Under the pieces are notes generated by a model that saw nothing but the letters and a program-made list of their open reading frames with translations, was not told the origin of the DNA and did no database searches. Made by a program: the position numbers and the translations under genes. Shown piece by piece: positions 1,934 to 20,552 of a stretch of 22,505 nt of DNA (position 1 is the stretch's first letter; each line of letters opens with the position of its first letter). This stretch comes from a virus (Duplodnaviria; Heunggongvirae; Uroviricota; Caudoviricetes), in IMG/VR virus record IMGVR_UViG_2681813269_000007; one strand, given 5' to 3'.

Positions 1934-2899
1934 TTAATTATCAGTAGATTGTTCCTCTAGTAACAACTCAATTCTGCTTAGTATTTCTTTAGATATTTTG
2001 CGGCTATCAATTTTTATAGTTACAAAATTACCTTTATATCTAGCCGTGATCCCTTCCCCATATTTTTTCTCGTCTTTTGTTTTTTCCTCGTCGCCAACCA
2101 GAACAGAGTCAGATAATATTTGTATAATCCGTGAAGCTTCTAAATCCTCGCCGTTTTTTTTAATTGCCAGAAGATGATGAGCAGCATTGCTCATGGCAGC
2201 CATGTTTTTTTTGTAAACCTTAAACAAAGAATCTCCAGCACGAGCTGACAGTTCTCCTGGATGATTGAAGATAGCTAATATATCTTTTGGTAGACCAGCT
2301 GTATTAATACAGCGAGTGATAATATTTCTATCTATATTTTCAGCCTCGGCTAATGCTTTAACGTTACCATCAAAGTCATTTAGCTTGCGTAAGTATCTCT
2401 TTCCTCTTTCGTATGCACTAATAGGCCTATAATCGTTACCAATTTGGGATAACCAATGCATCTGTTCATCGTCGAGATCACCAATTAAGACGCGATAGTC
2501 ACATCCTGTTAATATCGCTGCTTTTCTTCTACGTGAGCCGTCAGCGACTTCAACGATTCCAGATACTTTTCTGGCGAAAGCTGGATTTTGTTGTCCAGAC
2601 GTTAGAAAAGATGGGATTAAATCGGCTAGAGAGGATTCATTTAATAAATCTTGATCGCGTTCATTACCTAGCCATACCATTGTTGCCATTTCAACTTTAT
2701 CTGCGGGAATTGTCTCTAACTTAAAGTTAACATTACGTCCGCATACTGGCAAAGTTATGCTGTTACCGGTTAATGAACTCAGTTGACGTTTTAAATCACC
2801 AACCATAGGTGATACGGGCTGATGTTCAGGGGCATGATGATTATTACTCATAATGCGATTAATATCTGGAGCATTTTTTAGAAGAGAGCGCTGTTTCAT
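1934..2899 (-). CDS. sopB: Partition protein SopB (ParB family, centromere-binding)
   Basis: 321-aa ORF colinear with F-plasmid SopB as I recall it (ITLPVCGR, WxGNERDQ, DLIPSF, PAFxRxVSG, IADGSRRRKAA, DYRVLxGxLDDEQM, GNDYRPxSAYERG, CINTAxLPK, HPGELSAR). Start overlaps the sopA stop. Confidence 0.9.
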   Translation of the reverse strand: MKQRSLLKNAPDINRIMSNNHHAPEHQPVSPMVGDLKRQLSSLTGNSITLPVCGRNVNFKLETIPADKVEMATMVWLGNERDQDLLNESSLADLIPSFLTSGQQNPAFARKVSGIVEVADGSRRRKAAILTGCDYRVLIGDLDDEQMHWLSQIGNDYRPISAYERGKRYLRKLNDFDGNVKALAEAENIDRNIITRCINTAGLPKDILAIFNHPGELSARAGDSLFKVYKKNMAAMSNAAHHLLAIKKNGEDLEASRIIQILSDSVLVGDEEKTKDEKKYGEGITARYKGNFVTIKIDSRKISKEILSRIELLLEEQSTDN

Positions 2900-4065
2900 T
2901 ATTCGTTCTCCCAGCGAGGTTTTATTAGATCATCAAAAATTTCTCGGCAAACAGGGTCCCATATAGAAACAGCATTTCTCCATGCATTCAATGTTGAACG
3001 TTGGTTTGCTGCTTGTTCAAATACTGTTCTCATTTTTATCTGGCCTTTACCTACTTCATCGGTAACGCGTACAACCTGACGTAATACCATTGATCCCCAT
3101 GTATTTCTTATTTGTTCTTCCATCCATCGTGATTGATTCCCTGTAGTGAGACTATATTTAGTCAGAAGTAAGCGAACGGTTGGCTCAAATCCACCTAGGT
3201 CAACGCTTTCCAATAGATCGAGAAGCATTGTGAAAAACTGTAGAACAGAAGCGTAATCAAATAATTCTGCAGGTGTAGCAACAACAATAACGTCAGCGGC
3301 ACAAACAACGTTAATGGTTCCTGTACCGAGGTTCGGAGCACTATCTATAACGATAACATCGTAGTTATCCCAAACTGATTCAATAGCTGCGCGCAGCATA
3401 AGGTGTGGAGGATGAGGCAATTTACCCTGAGCATGATATTGCATGAGATCTGTTTCTATACGATGTAAAGCTAGGCAGCTAGGGATAATGTCTAGCCCAG
3501 GCCAACATGTTGGCTTTATAGCATATTCAGCGTTATCGCGTTCTCCTAAGTAAAATGGCAGTAAAGTATCCTCGGCATGGATATGTAAATCAGGAACATA
3601 ACCGTGATACATAGAGGCCGTGCCTTGAGGATCGTTACCTTCAACCAAAAGAACACGATGACCTTGTAATGCTAACCATTGAGCTTGATGTACCGCAGAC
3701 GATGTTTTATAAACGCCGCCTTTGTGTGACATAACGGCAAGCGCAACAGGGTTTTTATCTTGTGGTCGTTGGTTTGGGTTGCCAAAAACTGCTCGCATAC
3801 TGTTGATTTGATCTATGGTATAACCAGCACGACGTTCAATTCTTCCTCTCATTTCAAAGTCAGGTGCAGGTAAACGCCCGCTCTTCTCAGCATCTCTAAT
3901 TGCTTGAGGAGTTACACCAATTAAATCTGCTACTTCAGTTATACCCCATCGGCGGGTGATACGCCGAGCTTCAGGACTATCATCACCGAATTGAGCGATA
4001 GCAATTGCTTTGGTCATTTCTTGACCTCTCGTAACACAATCTTGCAATAACTTTTTCAAAGACAT
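2899..4065 (-). CDS. sopA: Partition ATPase SopA (ParA family, type Ia with N-terminal HTH extension)
   Basis: 388-aa ORF with GGAGATGA RBS. Deviant Walker A KGGVYKTS, a long N-terminal extension, and the same length as F SopA. Transcribed divergently from telN. Confidence 0.9.
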   Translation of the reverse strand: MSLKKLLQDCVTRGQEMTKAIAIAQFGDDSPEARRITRRWGITEVADLIGVTPQAIRDAEKSGRLPAPDFEMRGRIERRAGYTIDQINSMRAVFGNPNQRPQDKNPVALAVMSHKGGVYKTSSAVHQAQWLALQGHRVLLVEGNDPQGTASMYHGYVPDLHIHAEDTLLPFYLGERDNAEYAIKPTCWPGLDIIPSCLALHRIETDLMQYHAQGKLPHPPHLMLRAAIESVWDNYDVIVIDSAPNLGTGTINVVCAADVIVVATPAELFDYASVLQFFTMLLDLLESVDLGGFEPTVRLLLTKYSLTTGNQSRWMEEQIRNTWGSMVLRQVVRVTDEVGKGQIKMRTVFEQAANQRSTLNAWRNAVSIWDPVCREIFDDLIKPRWENE

Positions 4066-4086
4066 ACTGTCATCTCCAGCTTGTAA

Positions 4087-4164
4087 CTTTGCTTAATAAT
4101 TAAATCTTTGCTTATTTCTAGCAAATTTGCATAAAAAAGGCAAAGCAAAACGAAAAACGCAAAG
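4087..4164. promoter_or_regulatory. sopAB promoter/operator region with clustered CTTTGC / GCAAAG hexamers
   Basis: At least six CTTTGC or GCAAAG copies (4087, 4106, 4121-4130, 4140, 4159) lie just upstream of the sopA start. CTTTGC repeats are the SopA autoregulatory sites in the F sop promoter. Confidence 0.45.
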
Positions 4165-4352
4165 GCGAATATTTGAGCTAAATCATCTTTTTTTCCCCTC
4201 CCGAAATGCATAAAACGAACAACAATATAATCATAACTAATTGATATTTATGACCTTTCTTAAGAAAGGAAATCATATAAAACTAGAGAAACATGATAAG
4301 AATCATCAATGAGATACGTTTTCTCTATTAGTTCTCCCAACCTTACCAACAT

Positions 4353-4500
4353 AAGAACACAAATAAAGAACATAAAAAACAAGTAATAACACAAACACAA
4401 TAAAGAACATAAATAAAGAATTAAAACAAATATTAAATAAAACAGTACGCAAACTGAGAACATTACATCAAATGAAAACACTAATCAAGAACATAACGAA
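4353..4500. repeat. AT-rich array of AAGAACA(T/C)AA direct repeats next to telO
   Basis: AAGAACA occurs at 4353, 4366, 4403, 4487 and as GAGAACA at 4456. The 13-mer ATAAAGAACATAA is exact at 4363-4375 and 4400-4412. All copies are on the sopA side of the palindrome. Confidence 0.5.
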
Positions 4501-4542
4501 ACATAATCACCCATTATACGCGCGTATAATGGGGAATTATGT
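4501..4542. other. telRL / telO telomere-resolution site (protelomerase target palindrome)
   Basis: ACATAATCACCCATTATACGCGCGTATAATGGGGAATTATGT has dyad symmetry centred between 4521 and 4522. The central 24 bp (4510-4533) are a perfect palindrome containing TACGCGCGTA; two mismatched pairs separate it from 7-bp matched outer arms. It lies between sopA and telN, as in N15. Confidence 0.85.
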
Positions 4543-4712
4543 GCTGATTTTCAGAACAAAGTCAAGGAACAAATTTTAACGTTCCGACATTGTGTTTTTA
4601 TTTATTATCTGTTATTGCGTTCTGTTAGTTTGTGCCTAAGTTAACGCGTTATTAGTTATCTTATTCTCAAATTGTGTTACGATAATCCGAGCGGATAATC
4701 AGGAGAGGAAAG

Positions 4713-6626
4713 ATGAGCAAAGTAAAAATCGGTGAATTAATAAACTCACTTGTTAGCGATGTTGAGTCAATAGATAACTCTGACCGTCCTCAAGGGGAGA
4801 AAACAAAAAAAATAAAGGCTGTTGCATTAAAATTTAAAAATGCATTATTTAATGACAAGCGAAAGTTTAGGGGGAAAGGATTAGAAAAAAGAATTACAGC
4901 CAACACATTCAATGCCTATATGAGCAGGGCCAGAAAACGGTTTGATGATAAACTTCATCATAGCTTTGAAAAAAATATACATCGCCTATCTGAAAAGTAT
5001 CCTTTATATAATGAGGAGCTATTGTCATGGCTTTCTCTACCTGCTGCCGATATTCGCCAGAGAATGTCAGCTTTACAGGCAAAATTAAAATTAATTCTCC
5101 CTCTATCAGAAGATTTATCTAATATCAGAATTGGCGATAACAAAAGTCATAATAAGTTATTGAAATTATCAAATAAATATAAAGAGTGGCAATTCGCCAT
5201 TTCTGATTTAACTAGCGATAACTGGAAAGATAAGCGCGATTATTTATATAAATTACTACAGCAAGGATCTGCCTTACTTGAGGAGTTGAATCAGCTAAAA
5301 GTTAACCATGAGATTCTCTATCATCTTCAACTAAGCCCTGCCGAACGTGCATCTATCCAGCAACGATGGGCGGACGTTCTGCACAATAAGAAACGTAACG
5401 TGGTGGTCATTGATTACCCTAAATATATGCAAGCTATTTACGATATTATAAATAGCCCTGCTACATTAAATAATCTAAACACTCGTTCAGGTATGGCTCC
5501 TTTGGCATTTGCACTTGCTGCATTGTCAGGAAGACGAATGATTGAGATTATGTATCAAGGTACATTTACTGTTTCTGGTAAGTATACCGTTGATTTTTTA
5601 GGCCAAGCTAAAAAAAGAACTTCTGATGATATAACCAGAAAAATATATACATTATGCGAAGCAAAAACATTTGTTTATTTAATAAATGTACTTCGCTCAT
5701 GCCCAGCAGCATCTGATTTTGATGATGTCGTTAAAGGTTATGGAGATAACGATACACGCTCTGAAAACGGACGTATTAATGCCATATTAGCAAAGGCTTT
5801 TAACCCGTGGGTTAAATCATTTTTCAAAGATGACCGCCGTGTTTATAAAGATAGTCGTGCTATTTATGCCCGTATTGCGTATGAAATGTTTTTCCGCGTA
5901 GATCCTCGTTGGAAAAACGTAGATGAAGATGTTTTCTTTATGGAAATTTTAGGCCATGACGATGAAAACACTCAATTACACTATAAGCAATTCAAGCTGG
6001 CCAACTTCTCAAAGACATGGAGGCCAAATACTGGAAACGAAAATACCAGGCTGGAAGCATTGCAGCAGCTTGATGACGAAATGCCTGGATTCGCCAGAGG
6101 AGATGCCGGGGTTCGTCTGCATAACACAGTTAAGCAGCTGGTAGAGCAGGACCCCTCTATAAAAATCACGAACAGCACTCTAAGAGCGTTCAAATTTAGC
6201 CCAACAATGATTAGTCGATACCTGGAATTTGCTGCTGATGCTCTGGGGCAATTTGTTGGCGAAAACGGACAATGGCAACTGAAAATAGATACTCCAGAAA
6301 TCGTTATGCCTGACGAAGAAGAACTGGAAGCAATACCTGAACTGGCGGATGAATTATCAGAGGATGACGATCTGGATGACGACGAAATTGAGATAGAGGA
6401 AGAGGAAGAGGAAGAGGAAGAGGAAGAGGAAGAGAGCGTAGAAGAACAGCAACCGCCTGCACCTTCTTCGCCTGTATCTAAGCCGGTATTTAAGCCGGTG
6501 AGAAATATTGGTGATGGCTCATACGTTGTTGAGTTTCATTATAATGGCCAGAATTATGCGTGGTCCGGCAGTGCAAACAGCCCCATGTCAGCAATGCAGT
6601 TAGCATGGCTGACATATTTCGGTTAA
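4713..6626 (+). CDS. telN: Protelomerase TelN (telomere resolvase, tyrosine-recombinase-like)
   Basis: 637-aa ORF with AGGAGAGG RBS. The N-terminus MSKVKIGELIN... and overall colinearity match N15 TelN (about 630 aa) as I recall it. An acidic C-terminal tract precedes the conserved tail. Confidence 0.92.
   Translation: MSKVKIGELINSLVSDVESIDNSDRPQGEKTKKIKAVALKFKNALFNDKRKFRGKGLEKRITANTFNAYMSRARKRFDDKLHHSFEKNIHRLSEKYPLYNEELLSWLSLPAADIRQRMSALQAKLKLILPLSEDLSNIRIGDNKSHNKLLKLSNKYKEWQFAISDLTSDNWKDKRDYLYKLLQQGSALLEELNQLKVNHEILYHLQLSPAERASIQQRWADVLHNKKRNVVVIDYPKYMQAIYDIINSPATLNNLNTRSGMAPLAFALAALSGRRMIEIMYQGTFTVSGKYTVDFLGQAKKRTSDDITRKIYTLCEAKTFVYLINVLRSCPAASDFDDVVKGYGDNDTRSENGRINAILAKAFNPWVKSFFKDDRRVYKDSRAIYARIAYEMFFRVDPRWKNVDEDVFFMEILGHDDENTQLHYKQFKLANFSKTWRPNTGNENTRLEALQQLDDEMPGFARGDAGVRLHNTVKQLVEQDPSIKITNSTLRAFKFSPTMISRYLEFAADALGQFVGENGQWQLKIDTPEIVMPDEEELEAIPELADELSEDDDLDDDEIEIEEEEEEEEEEEEESVEEQQPPAPSSPVSKPVFKPVRNIGDGSYVVEFHYNGQNYAWSGSANSPMSAMQLAWLTYFG
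6396..6431 (+). repeat. Perfect (GAGGAA)x6 in-frame hexanucleotide tandem repeat inside telN
   Basis: Six exact tandem GAGGAA units encode the poly-Glu run in the TelN C-terminal acidic linker. Confidence 0.9.
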
Positions 6627-13100: not shown

Positions 13101-14162
13101 GAATTTCGATAAGATTTCATAGCCAGTCCGCAGGCCGGTATTCCCTTTTCCTTCTGTGGCAGATTTCCGGTCATTATCCAGTGCGCAGGTGATTTTTGCC
13201 GCCGGGTACATGTTTACCAGTTGTTCCACAACATGAACCATGTTGTTAGCGGATACAGCGACAACCACAGCGTCAAAGCGTTTATATTTTTTCGTGGCAA
13301 GCCAGATGGATGCACCAGTAGCAAAACCTTCTGTAACAGCGATGTTTTGCGCCCCTTTCAGCTCACCGATAACAAAGCAGGCACCGACGAAATCGCCGCT
13401 GGTTACTGCGCTGGTCTGGTATTTCCCACCTTGTTTGTCGATTCGCTGCCAACCCACAATACGACCATCGTAACGACCGTCCAGGTGAGCCAGAGGGATA
13501 GCCATATATGTGGTTGGCCCCCGGCTCCATTTCGCACTGTCGTGACTGGTCACGCGACGCACATCACATGAACTAAAAACGTCACGAATACCTTTTTTAA
13601 TCGCATATGGCCATGAGCCGTCTTCAGCCGGAGCATGTTCCCACGCGCTGTGGAATGCCAGCCATCCCAGCAAACGTTCATGGTCCATTTGGTTGTTTTT
13701 CAGGTCATTAATTCGTTTTTGTTCTTCACGGCGACGACGTGCTTCGGCCTGACGTTCTATTCTTTCCCGTTCTTCTTCCGGTTGTGCGACCACGGTCGCA
13801 TTATTCCGTTGTTGCTCACGGCGATATTCAGAAAACAGGAAGGAGAAACCGCTCCATGAGCCAGCATCGCTGCCTTTATGGACGAAGTTAATGAACGGGT
13901 AATCAATCCCTTTGCTGTGTTCCAGCCGGGAGTAAATTTCTACGCGTCCTTTCAGGCTCTTTTCGAGAGCTTCTGGAGATGTTTTATTGTATGAAGAGTA
14001 ACGCTCAACTCCCCCGCGAGGGTTGAGTTGGATGTTGTCGGAACAGGCAGGCCAGTTGATACCAGCCATCTGTGCCAGCTCGGTTAGTTCATCCCGTGCT
14101 GCTTCAATTAGCGAGAACGGATCGCTGCCAAAGCGATCCGCATAGAAATCGTTTAATGTCAT
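10167..14162 (-). CDS. repA: Replication protein RepA (multidomain primase-helicase)
   Basis: 1331-aa ORF, close to the roughly 1324 aa I recall for N15 RepA. Walker A GMGSGKST in the central helicase region. Same orientation and position relative to cB as in N15. Confidence 0.92.
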   Translation of the reverse strand: MTLNDFYADRFGSDPFSLIEAARDELTELAQMAGINWPACSDNIQLNPRGGVERYSSYNKTSPEALEKSLKGRVEIYSRLEHSKGIDYPFINFVHKGSDAGSWSGFSFLFSEYRREQQRNNATVVAQPEEERERIERQAEARRRREEQKRINDLKNNQMDHERLLGWLAFHSAWEHAPAEDGSWPYAIKKGIRDVFSSCDVRRVTSHDSAKWSRGPTTYMAIPLAHLDGRYDGRIVGWQRIDKQGGKYQTSAVTSGDFVGACFVIGELKGAQNIAVTEGFATGASIWLATKKYKRFDAVVVAVSANNMVHVVEQLVNMYPAAKITCALDNDRKSATEGKGNTGLRTGYEILSKFNDVRCVYPTFEDDPQMECSDFNDLHKLRGLRETARQLFTTANRLKTGTDLLSLTLNRLKTIKRDNRRTFAKELLRAVDIGMLTCPVPNSPSDLFNMFCIVLREMGLENIYRATVKDHIARRLNKKCRIAQAPRSFSERITDPNKRPQHITYKRFETSVMTDDVLKYVQSLQGIVIVRAGMGSGKSTGLLRPLMHSSERGISVAHRVSLIGGLWEMMTEGKGVKADILHYQDPGYQEMAPYASKLTICINSIVKNCWQPLMRQHDYFGFDEATQGLRAVLSGRAMENPVAVFNTLIDALARTEQHPIMVDADANDLLVDLAELAMKRREELGLPAWLQIHVIELPVDVRNRETGEPIRVFYTEKDRIMTEVVKAVSDGEKIMLATDSSTFAEDVTATLRMHFPGKKFLCVNQKNKPEPEVEAFTNQPKKMVKKYDGLIYSPSISSGVSIEQKHFDRHFGMFCGEVVPSDAVQMLRRDRTAKEFIIGFDKARAKRETDPQKIERAFAQALLATAGMNGELTDVVFDGDRISMGVANTDFTRMKIKAAAIEATARNDYASNMICIMHSDGYKVSPLATDYAANDIGKELRKEARDIVWEQTLDLHLNTETPQESEREELLKKRALTLEEQAKLVRWDIENELKLPVEEGTLKFYFDGARDKVRRYETMLLDEVTARRYDREEAAINFTYAYRQAGQWQYFVVTAMTREQADDVFKTKFPGIIDHKVKATPTVEVGARGFYALKSATLRQYFIDCGINPETMTGEATQERLKFARDNLMTAERRDLLNNVLHIGGFMTPKGKPKVPEALFKNICDSLGLKTGKRRGRDGDKRPTLRFVEPESAAFMLDILAQRQKDGLTLKTRKAEKTAIEMDRDLDLNIYMDDKTRSTNEQVQNAPHSVISEALAVLPVVVPESWAMSALSGEELATMSSWSSASIAMTFASLYLTEFMDHLSSNELRRLREYITGNSPCSYEEQGAFYG
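13783..13802. other. sopC-like centromere palindrome, copy 1 (inside repA coding sequence)
   Basis: TGTGCGACC-AC-GGTCGCATT. Positions 13785-13800 (TGCGACC-AC-GGTCGCA) are a perfect 7+2+7 inverted repeat with the same GACC-AC-GGTC core as the F sopC SopB-binding site. Confidence 0.6.
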
Positions 14163-15026: not shown

Positions 15027-15068
15027 TTATAGCTGGCTATAAAATTTATTTATTATAGCTGGCTTTAA
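15027..15068. promoter_or_regulatory. Paired operators in the cB-cro intergenic region
   Basis: TTATAGC-TG-GCTATAA (15027-15042) and TTATAGC-TG-GCTTTAA (15053-15068) are 26 bp centre to centre, followed by TATAAT at 15084-15089. Confidence 0.6.
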
Positions 15069-16022: not shown

Positions 16023-16270
16023 TTATGTTCAGGAAACCGTCGAAGCCAGAATTAAGGTATTCGGGGGTAAGAAATGAATATGTTATCTGGTGTCCAACTT
16101 GTGGTTACAGGACACGACCAGATAGTAATAAGCAGTCTGTAATTGCCGATTGGTATTTATCAAATCAGCCAGGTAATAAGCATATAGAAAATCTTTGGAT
16201 TAAGCGTTACTTGGAAATCAGCGAGGGTGCGACCACGGTCGCACAAGAAAATGAAAATAACGCCATTTAA
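16023..16270 (+). CDS. Small zinc-ribbon protein (possible Lar-type restriction-alleviation protein)
   Basis: 82 aa from ATG 16023 with a CPTCG motif in YVIWCPTCGYRTRPD. No clear RBS; the start is uncertain and the ORF track offers an alternative at 15950. Confidence 0.35.
16227..16244. other. sopC-like centromere palindrome, copy 2
   Basis: GTGCGACC-AC-GGTCGCAC, a perfect 8+2+8 inverted repeat at the junction of two small ORFs. Confidence 0.6.
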
Positions 16271-20530: not shown

Positions 20531-20552
20531 CTGTGCGACCACGGTCGCACAG
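20531..20552. other. sopC-like centromere palindrome, copy 3 (longest perfect copy)
   Basis: CTGTGCGACC-AC-GGTCGCACAG, a perfect 10+2+10 inverted repeat starting 4 nt after the stop of the preceding gene. Confidence 0.65.

Follow-up and report, generated by a model that had tools for sequence, protein, structure and literature searches.

Oriented, arm-related repeats beside telRL of an N15-like phage-plasmid: candidate half of an extended protelomerase target

The DNA analysed here, referred to as the window, is a stretch of 22,505 bases that is, according to its ORF layout and database matches, an N15-like telomere phage-plasmid of E. coli. The gene order across the locus is sopB, sopA, telRL, telN and repA, with the telRL palindrome (arms at 4501-4542) located between sopA and telN (Table 1). 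The TelN protein of the window aligns with the TelK crystal chain 2v6e across residues 1-536, and the closest database record is plasmid pRHBSTW-00124_4, which is 97.5% identical across 4050-4720. The positions of short words are given as registers, meaning distances in bp from the telO centre, negative toward sopA and positive toward telN.

Table 1. Genes, telomere resolution site and arm-related words in the window
Feature	Position	Strand	Register	Remarks
sopB	1934-2899	-		Pfam: SopB_HTH
sopA	2899-4065	-		Pfam: ParA-type ATPase domain
Arm-like word AAGAACACAA	4353-4362	+	-167	One mismatch to AAGAACATAA; its GAACA begins 167 bp before the telO centre
Exact AAGAACATAA	4366-4375	+	-154	
Weak variant word AATAACACAA, TAACA type	4385-4394	+		Poorly conserved; 5.8 bits on 10-mer arm matrix
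Exact AAGAACATAA	4403-4412	+	-117	
Weaker word GAGAACATTA	4456-4465	+	-64	
Decayed word GAAAACACTA	4474-4483	+	-46	
Exact AAGAACATAA abutting telRL	4487-4496	+	-33	
telRL, 56 bp	4494-4549	.		Inverted repeat; matches annotated telRL of N15 and phiKO2
telRL left 14-bp arm TAACGAAACATAAT	4494-4507			11.6 bits on arm matrix
Left-arm word CGAAACATAA	4497-4506			
telO palindrome	4511-4532			Centre between 4521/4522
telRL right 14-bp arm	4536-4549			Reverse complement AATCAGCACATAAT; 19.2 bits on arm matrix
Right-arm word CAGCACATAA	4537-4546	-		
Word CAGAACAAAG	4552-4561	+	+32	Reads away from telO
Word AGGAACAAAT	4565-4574	+	+45	Reads away from telO
Arm-like 14-mer AATAAAAACACAAT	4589-4602	-	about 81	Points to telO; 7.9 bits on arm matrix
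Arm-like 14-mer TAACAGAACGCAAT	4614-4627	-	106/101	Points to telO; 15.2 bits on arm matrix
Arm-like 14-mer TATCGTAACACAAT	4671-4684	-	163/158	Points to telO; 12.0 bits on arm matrix
telN	4713-6626	+		Four of four TelK domains (including Pfam ResT-TelK_cat)
repA-size ORF, 1331 codons	10167-14162	-		

The spacer between sopA and telRL carries the array of direct repeats that an initial annotation of the sequence had described, with exact copies of a decamer starting at 4366, 4403 and 4487 and a near copy, AAGAACACAA, at 4353. Exact AAGAACATAA occurs three times in the entire 22,505-base window, each time inside 4366-4496, and the array on the sopA side amounts to about seven copies once degenerate ones are included. 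The annotation had further listed two exact 13-mers. This pair is real, but its members are longer, being identical 15-mers (AATAAAGAACATAAA, at 4362-4376 and 4399-4413) that owe their identity to an imperfect 37-bp tandem duplication (TRF: period 37 bp, 1.9 copies, 86% match). The array was also said to abut telRL, and it does so closely: the 4487-4496 copy shares 3 bases with telRL, overlapping the start of the left arm, and exactly 10 bp after this last decamer comes the arm word CGAAACATAA. All copies on both flanks lie 29-172 bp from the telO centre, which is inside the size of the natural TelN target of about 310 bp (PMC12624138).

The base composition of the segment 4341-4500 (60% A, 7.5% G) bears on the simplest account of the array, namely that it is functionless, A-rich, low-complexity DNA derived from slippage or from the 37-bp duplication and perhaps serving as a flexible or bent spacer. 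Since the segment is 60% A, we drew shuffles from that segment alone, 5000 in number and preserving dinucleotides, and tested motifs that had been picked after the data were seen. RGAACAY was observed five times against 0.20 expected, and AAGAACAYAA four times against 0.04 expected; neither count was ever reached in the 5000 shuffles. As the enrichment survives local shuffling, the array is real and not a by-product of composition. The AA dinucleotides of the segment lack 10-11 bp phasing (power in this range was below the shuffle mean, P 0.79-0.92), which speaks against the bent region that the initial annotation had offered as one explanation.

In an alignment of the window and nine relatives with identities of 79-97.5%, all ten sequences share the GAACA cores at 4355, 4405 and 4489 as well as TAAAGAACA at the 4403-4412 copy, and CAAGAAC at the 4487-4496 copy is kept by every relative. 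The 4366-4375 copy is not universally kept and reads AAAGATCGTA in the relatives of about 80-85% identity, the pS142-3 group, where the words at 4368 and 4458 have been lost and a GAACA has been gained at register -77. In most relatives the 4474-4483 word reads (A/G)AGAACACTA, so that GAACA is intact at 4476. The gain and loss of individual copies (those at 4366 and 4456 in the pS142-3 group) is a point in favor of the array being functionless, along with the tandem duplication and the A content.

The same alignment settles the status of an ORF called across the array at 4260-4481 on the minus strand, which had already been flagged as probably not real. If genuine, the region would encode a small protein, and in the window the frame is indeed open for 73 codons from a GTG start. 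The frame is broken in all nine relatives, with the 97.5%-identical one terminating at codon 9 and length changes of 1-2 bp shifting the frame in the other eight, and single-base indels are scattered throughout 4260-4481. Its low-complexity translation, in which F, L, C and V abound, matches no Pfam family. We consider a protein product hardly conceivable, and the ORF should be removed from genome annotation. A known structured RNA was rejected as well: Rfam gave only two sub-threshold chance matches over the palindrome, with 21-24 bits against a gathering score of 79.

The repeats had also been described as sitting only on the sopA side, which holds for the exact decamer and fails for related words: these occur on the telN side at 4552-4574 on the plus strand and at 4589-4684 on the minus strand. 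The first two, CAGAACAAAG and AGGAACAAAT, are spaced 13 bp apart. Farther out, TAACAGAACGCAAT is the best arm-matrix match in the window outside telRL, and in most close relatives the 14-mer at this place reads CAGAACACAA. The outermost word, TATCGTAACACAAT, overlaps a TGtTACGAT element located 28 bp ahead of the telN start codon, which is probably the extended -10 (4676-4684) of the telN promoter. From the supposed one-sidedness it had been argued that the repeats are not telO arm repeats. This argument fails, because the decamers match the arm at 8 of 10 bases, are co-oriented with the adjacent arm and have copies on the telN side. The plasmid prophage, moreover, resolves telRR and telLL junctions (PMC12624138), where, by inference, each flank would face a perfect mirror copy of itself. 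The asymmetry of telRL would therefore be absent from the normal substrates of the plasmid, making it a weak argument in any case.

The kinship between the flank words and the arm can be put in numbers. The decamer AAGAACATAA agrees with each of the window's own arm words, CAGCACATAA and CGAAACATAA, at 8 of 10 positions, and the left arm of the window has itself drifted toward the flank word, having CGAAACATAA in place of CAGCACATAA. On a 10-mer matrix made from arms only, the four best decamers score 9.5-9.9 bits compared with 10.5 bits for the left arm, and the A-rich segment contains 4 matches of at least 8 bits versus 1.0 in dinucleotide shuffles (P = 0.0085). A comparable likeness is seen in phiKO2-type phages, where 11 of 13 bases are identical between the flank word ATCATAACACAAT and the arm ATCAGCACACAAT.

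The comparison was then extended to more distant phages. The BLAST alignment between N15 and the window was confined to about -33 to +163 relative to the telO centre, at 69.5% identity, and in the sopA-side spacer left of about -33 BLAST gave no alignment of N15 or phiKO2 to the window; the sequences were therefore stacked by their distance from the telO centre. Stacked in this way, [G/T]AACA words stand at fixed distances from telO in the window clade, in N15 and in phiKO2-like phages. GAACA at registers -33, -64/-65, -154/-155, +32, +45 and +101 is common to the window clade and N15 or Enterobacter phage MStein-2023a. At the first of these registers, GGAACAT in N15 and the Enterobacter phage is in a position identical to that of the window's 4487-4496 copy; GAACA at -64 or -65 is found in N15, the Enterobacter phage and a Klebsiella clade, and the N15 GAACA at -155 lies near the window's -154 copy. 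On the minus strand, N15 and the Enterobacter phage have GAACA at +77 and +101. At the corresponding registers phiKO2, KpLi5 and a Citrobacter plasmid mostly have (A)TAACAC, for example catcaTAACAc at -46 and TAACA at +32 in the phiKO2 types, and at register 77 on the telN side N15 has GGAACACAAC where the phiKO2 types have TAACA. Unbiased word counts return GAACA and (A)TAACAC-type words as the top words of the respective flanks, and by our count the sopA side of N15 contains five GAACA. The left flank of N15 is not A-rich, yet its registers match those of the window. A comparison of this kind had been suggested at the outset as a check on the array, and its result refutes non-conservation: between the window clade and N15 the words keep their registers. 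We also considered a clean switch from G to T between N15-type and phiKO2-type phages and rejected it: the preference is real but mixed in a larger set, where the Klebsiella clade retains GAACA at -64 and N15 types have some TAACA.

This larger set consisted of all stored contigs with the telO core (37 IMG/VR loci and 2 genome loci) and was divided into 32 unique sopA-side arms and 29 unique telN-side arms, together 61 flanks, which are phylogenetically related, so that the counts over them are not independent. Register -46 is filled in 20 of the 32 sop-side arms, the register of the 4614-4627 word in 28 of the 29 telN-side arms, and the 4671-4684 word with its TGtTACGAT overlap is likewise present in 28 of 29. 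The word [GT]AACA[CT] oriented toward the centre has a mean of 4.16 in sop-side arms, compared with 0.70 in shuffles and 0.31 in the opposite orientation, and a mean of 3.17 versus 0.50 in telN-side arms. We also scanned the 61 flanks outside telRL with a 14-mer matrix derived from telRL arms only (positions -28 to -15). This gave 158 matches pointing toward the telomere and 2 in reverse, where shuffles averaged 16 and peaked at 28, and the 158 matches cluster at recurrent registers. On this longer matrix only 4350-4363, the 14-mer over AAGAACACAA, exceeds 2.5 bits on the sopA side of the window, at 7.9 bits; the other decamers are poor matches, and the better copies of the window are those on the telN side (15.2 and 12.0 bits). 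A fair test is offered by the nine N15-like sop-side arms, as this clade was not used to define the motif. In these arms, which have a mean pairwise identity of 68%, the five GAACA words are 98% conserved compared with 75% for the other flank columns, and none of 20,000 random column sets equalled 98%.

These results weigh heavily on the idea that the array lacks a function. Within flanks that have otherwise diverged, conservation is highest in the GAACA columns, and matching registers are filled in the N15 flank despite its different composition and its failure to align by BLAST. Together with the enrichment over local shuffles and the absence of AA phasing, this leaves functionless DNA as a very improbable explanation, one that is largely refuted by the conservation of register across clades.

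If the words are functional, their reader need not be TelN: a nucleoid or regulatory protein of the host, or some other phage protein, could bind them, and their resemblance to the arm would then be partial and coincidental. The flank consensus [G/T]AACA differs systematically and consistently from the GCACA of the arm, and this difference could mean that another protein reads the words or that low affinity has been selected for. The preferred first base of the flank word also depends on the clade (G in N15 types, T in phiKO2 types, each followed by AACA) despite nearly identical arms, and pairs of words 12-13 bp apart recur (-167/-154, -46/-33, +32/+45), unlike the known geometry of a TelN dimer. 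What argues most directly for the arm reader is PY54, a phage whose protelomerase shows 43% identity. Its arm word, GT[AC]ACC[CT]A at +/-24, is unlike the N15-type arm and recurs at -100, +74, +101 and +149, in each case pointing to the centre, with the last three registers near +77, +101 and +145 of N15. Arm and flank words thus change together across clades, and the flank words are therefore tied to whatever reads the arm; that the flank words of PY54 follow its own, different arm word is not predicted by an unrelated factor. Strict orientation and a fixed register relative to telO likewise tie the words to the telRL complex, nor would a host protein that is highly conserved account for words that differ by clade.

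The known specific binders SopB, SopA and CB/Cro all have unrelated sites. The partition factor SopB had been put forward initially as a candidate; sopC-like sites, defined as a 16-bp inverted repeat related to TGGGACCACGGTCCCA, are found as TGCGACCACGGTCGCA at 13785, 16228 and 20534, with none in 4300-4720. The SopA operator, recognised by its hexamers and F-type spacing (PMC8465637), was rejected as an identity for the array: its CTTTGC/GCAAAG hexamers are at 4087-4092, 4106-4111, 4140-4145 and 4159-4164, outside the array. CB/Cro operators were rejected as well, since the immB repeats TTATAGCTGGCTATAA and a partial copy, TTATAGCTGGCT, at about 15027-15066 are unrelated to AAGAACATAA. Overall, we regard a reader other than TelN as quite improbable.

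Repeats flanking the resolution site have been published for N15. According to Houmel et al. 2025 (PMC12624138), TelN has a natural target of about 310 bp in this phage, of which the 56-bp telRL comprises telO and the L3 and R3 motifs (PMC12624138), and degenerate copies of L3 and R3, named L1/L2 and R1/R2 and numbering at least two per side, are mentioned in that paper with reference to Deneke 2000 and 2002. Because such repeats are already described around N15 telRL, the array is a local form of a known feature, this phage's version of the degenerate arm-motif copies. The two sets are alike in their location between sopA and telN within about 170 bp of the telO centre, in their kinship to the arm motif, in their orientation toward telO, and in the several registers shared by the window clade and N15 (-33 through +101, as listed above). 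They differ in that the window has the word AAGAACA(C/T)AA in a 60%-A tract, partly arising from the 37-bp duplication, and about seven sopA-side copies, where the literature on N15 speaks of "at least two" per side.

We propose that the array is the sopA-side (telR-side) half of an extended protelomerase target ("tos"), that it is the counterpart of L1/L2 and R1/R2 of N15, and that it is read by TelN. We hold this to be probable, though well short of certain. Support at the level of sequence comes from arm relatedness, orientation, conserved register and the joint change of arm and flank words across clades, and the view of the repeats as putative protein-binding sites connected with TelN fits all of the evidence. 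We speculate that the protelomerase domain that reads the telRL arm would also read the weaker flank words, and that because of this the flanks would hold extra TelN beside the resolution site and, after resolution, beside the hairpin end. TelN held in this manner could load faster on the replicated telRR and telLL junctions, and it could enlarge the assembly that protects the hairpin. Bound at the 4671-4684 word, which overlaps the probable telN -10, it could also repress its own promoter. The orientation of the +32 and +45 words is opposite to what a simple mirror-symmetric assembly of TelN would call for.

[quoted passage not shown] Other groups have worked with "tos" fragments of 0.4-0.52 kb (0.4 kb and 519 bp) instead of the 56-bp site. 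For N15 itself, it has been called "conceivable" that CTD1 of TelN, the stirrup, might bind the repeats and recruit several TelN molecules (PMC12624138). [quoted passage not shown] The truncation results suggest that an effect of the flanks, if any, would be visible only where TelN is not overproduced. Our alignment of the TelN C-terminus shows an acidic poly-Glu linker and a conserved domain, about 45 aa long, in which certain residues are clade-specific. We rejected this extreme C-terminal domain as the reader of the words, as its clade-specific residues are confounded by phylogeny and the domains are dispensable (PMC12624138).

The strongest rival to the extended target is that the words serve mainly as transcriptional operators, positioning TelN or another phage protein at the divergent telN and sop promoters. 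It overlaps our proposal and does not exclude it. The overlap of the 4671-4684 word with TGtTACGAT, retained in 28 of 29 arms, is what would be expected of an operator. A sigma-70-like site, TTGACT-18-CATAAT at 4565-4536 on the minus strand, has its -10 inside the right arm and its -35 between the +32 and +45 words, and a second promoter-like site at 4299-4272 on the minus strand is located just downstream of the array in a very conserved block. A 2003 paper reportedly found that TelN also controls the sop operon of N15. The promoter evidence itself is slight, however: the scan found 2 sites versus 4.1 in shuffles, which gives them no statistical weight, and by eye the TTGACT -35 lacks a counterpart at the equivalent place in N15. 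Most of the sopA-side words (4353-4496) are 190-400 bp upstream of the SopA-operator promoter region (4087-4164), and they are too distant and too numerous for a simple operator. We see a mainly transcriptional role as unlikely, while overlapping promoters could account for parts of the conservation.

Returning to the extended target, several known systems offer likenesses. PY54 has repeats beyond its minimal palindrome, and the cited accounts describe one inverted pair suspected to aid processing in vivo (PMC10612081, PMC3540006). As with the array, the repeats are additional to the core site of a telomere phage; the published inverted pair differs in that its sequence is unrelated to AAGAACATAA. 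The equivalent repeat of phage P840, which is related to PY54, proved dispensable for processing in vivo. A second likeness is to phage lambda, where the P and P' arms of attP contain accessory sites for a tyrosine recombinase beside the core. Protelomerases share the tyrosine-recombinase/topoisomerase IB catalytic fold (Pfam ResT-TelK_cat), and in both systems a core site is flanked by extra, directional and weaker sites, which in lambda build a higher-order complex. Lambda Int uses a separate N-terminal domain to read arm sites whose sequence has no relation to that of the core, whereas the flank words here resemble the telRL arm itself. The systems also differ in that a bending protein is not indicated here and the core reaction is independent of the flanks. 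A third likeness, the tandem telomere repeats bound by Rap1 or shelterin in eukaryotes, was drawn by Houmel et al. 2025 (PMC12624138). By this analogy the words would be short oriented elements beside a chromosome end that recruit several end-protecting proteins; there is no homology, and the words are few, degenerate and fixed in position, unlike a tandem array of variable length.

A more far-reaching and more tentative version of our proposal, which we consider possible but doubtful, is that the flank words are not decayed remnants of the arm but a selected lower-affinity variant of it ([G/T]AACA for GCACA), and that their fixed registers over about 170 bp per side would template a defined multi-TelN cap or loop on the hairpin end and on replicated telRR and telLL junctions. 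The register is conserved from N15 to PY54 although the word changes. If this were true, enterobacterial telomere phages would possess a genuine "subtelomere" whose layout is under constraints as tight as those on the resolution site, and the array in the window would be one half of it. The helical phasing of the words relative to the arm is mixed: by arithmetic, those at -33, -64 and -117 are in phase and others are not.

The comparison of flank words addresses a puzzle of these phages, in which a 56-bp site suffices yet the natural target is about 310 bp. It provides handles in the form of conserved words, their exact distances from telO, their orientation to the end and their tracking of the arm word of each phage, and it shows that the array is neither one-sided in kind nor peculiar to this phage. 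In phage PhiR46_1, which was deposited in its prophage form, the sopA side terminates in an annotated "telR site".

The two arms of telRL, the protelomerase target, are unequal in the window. On a weight matrix built from telRL arms, the left arm scores well below the right (Table), and its drifted sequence, TAACGAAACATAAT, is common to seven unique arms in the collections. The arms are symmetric in the pS142-3 group, the more distant relatives of the window phage, and in N15.

The right arm also contains the -10 element of a predicted sigma-70-like site that matches the consensus at 10 of 12 positions and points leftward over telRL, towards sopA; its -35 element lies between the GAACA-type words at +32 and +45 from the telO centre. 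Sequence comparison indicates that this site is kept in the close relatives of the window phage (the window clade), and a comparison by eye with N15 found no counterpart of the TTGACT -35. Expression of sop from this predicted promoter could be possible only while telRL is uncut. A second sop promoter, controlled by TelN, has reportedly been described for N15.

The block at 4262-4335, which lies between the SopA operator and the arm-like repeats on the sopA side of telRL, is nearly invariant in all 10 aligned close relatives and more conserved than its surroundings (alignment A1). A promoter scan placed a promoter-like site inside this block, which could serve either as a second promoter for sop or as a regulatory site. 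Immediately upstream of the telN ribosome-binding site, GATAATCCGAGCGGATAATC consists of a GATAATC direct repeat enclosing the small palindrome ATCCG-AG-CGGAT. This element, which could be an operator, is kept in the window clade but not in N15.

Features around telRL and elsewhere in the window, with the N15 inverted repeat
Feature	Position	Strand	Sequence	Detail
Left telRL arm	4494-4507		TAACGAAACATAAT	11.6 bits
Right telRL arm	4536-4549		AATCAGCACATAAT	19.2 bits
Sigma-70-like site	4536-4565	-	TTGACT-18-CATAAT	10/12 matches
Promoter-like site	4299-4272	-	TTATCA-16-TATGAT	promoter scan
Repeat before telN	4681-4700		GATAATCCGAGCGGATAATC
sopC-like inverted repeats	13785-13800, 16228-16243, 20534-20549		TGCGACCACGGTCGCA	three identical copies
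N15 inverted repeat	about -166 to -151 and +141 to +156 from telO centre		ACACAATCAAAGAACA	one copy each side of telRL

In N15 (L010), telRL is flanked by a perfect inverted repeat of 16 bp, ACACAATCAAAGAACA, whose two copies have a 10-bp offset with respect to the telO centre. In the window, the GAACA on the telN side of this pair has been lost, and GAATA stands in its place. Away from telRL, TGCGACCACGGTCGCA occurs three times in the window against 0.06 copies expected by chance, and one of the three lies in repA. These repeats resemble the dispersed centromere sites described in N15. The pJAZZ paper placed an N15 centromere within repA.

Several IMG/VR contigs carry an identical arm on either side of telO, forming telRR- or telLL-like palindromes: both arms are of the sopA-side type in L023, L024 and L031 and of the telN-side type in L041, L047, L051, L054 and L057. 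These contigs represent either captured replicated junctions or assembler read-through around the hairpin. In pPEC1013-3 (L009), deposited as linear, the sopA flank is joined to the telN flank with about 50 bp missing (alignment A1 columns 454-503), including the entire telO core; the assembly has probably collapsed at the hairpin here.

TelN residues ~531-637 (window 6303-6626), for which Pfam has no family and the TelK crystal structure no counterpart, consist of a long, acidic linker of the poly-Glu type and, after it, a conserved ~45-residue domain with the signature PVFKP...YAWSG...AW.TY. The length of the linker differs among clades.
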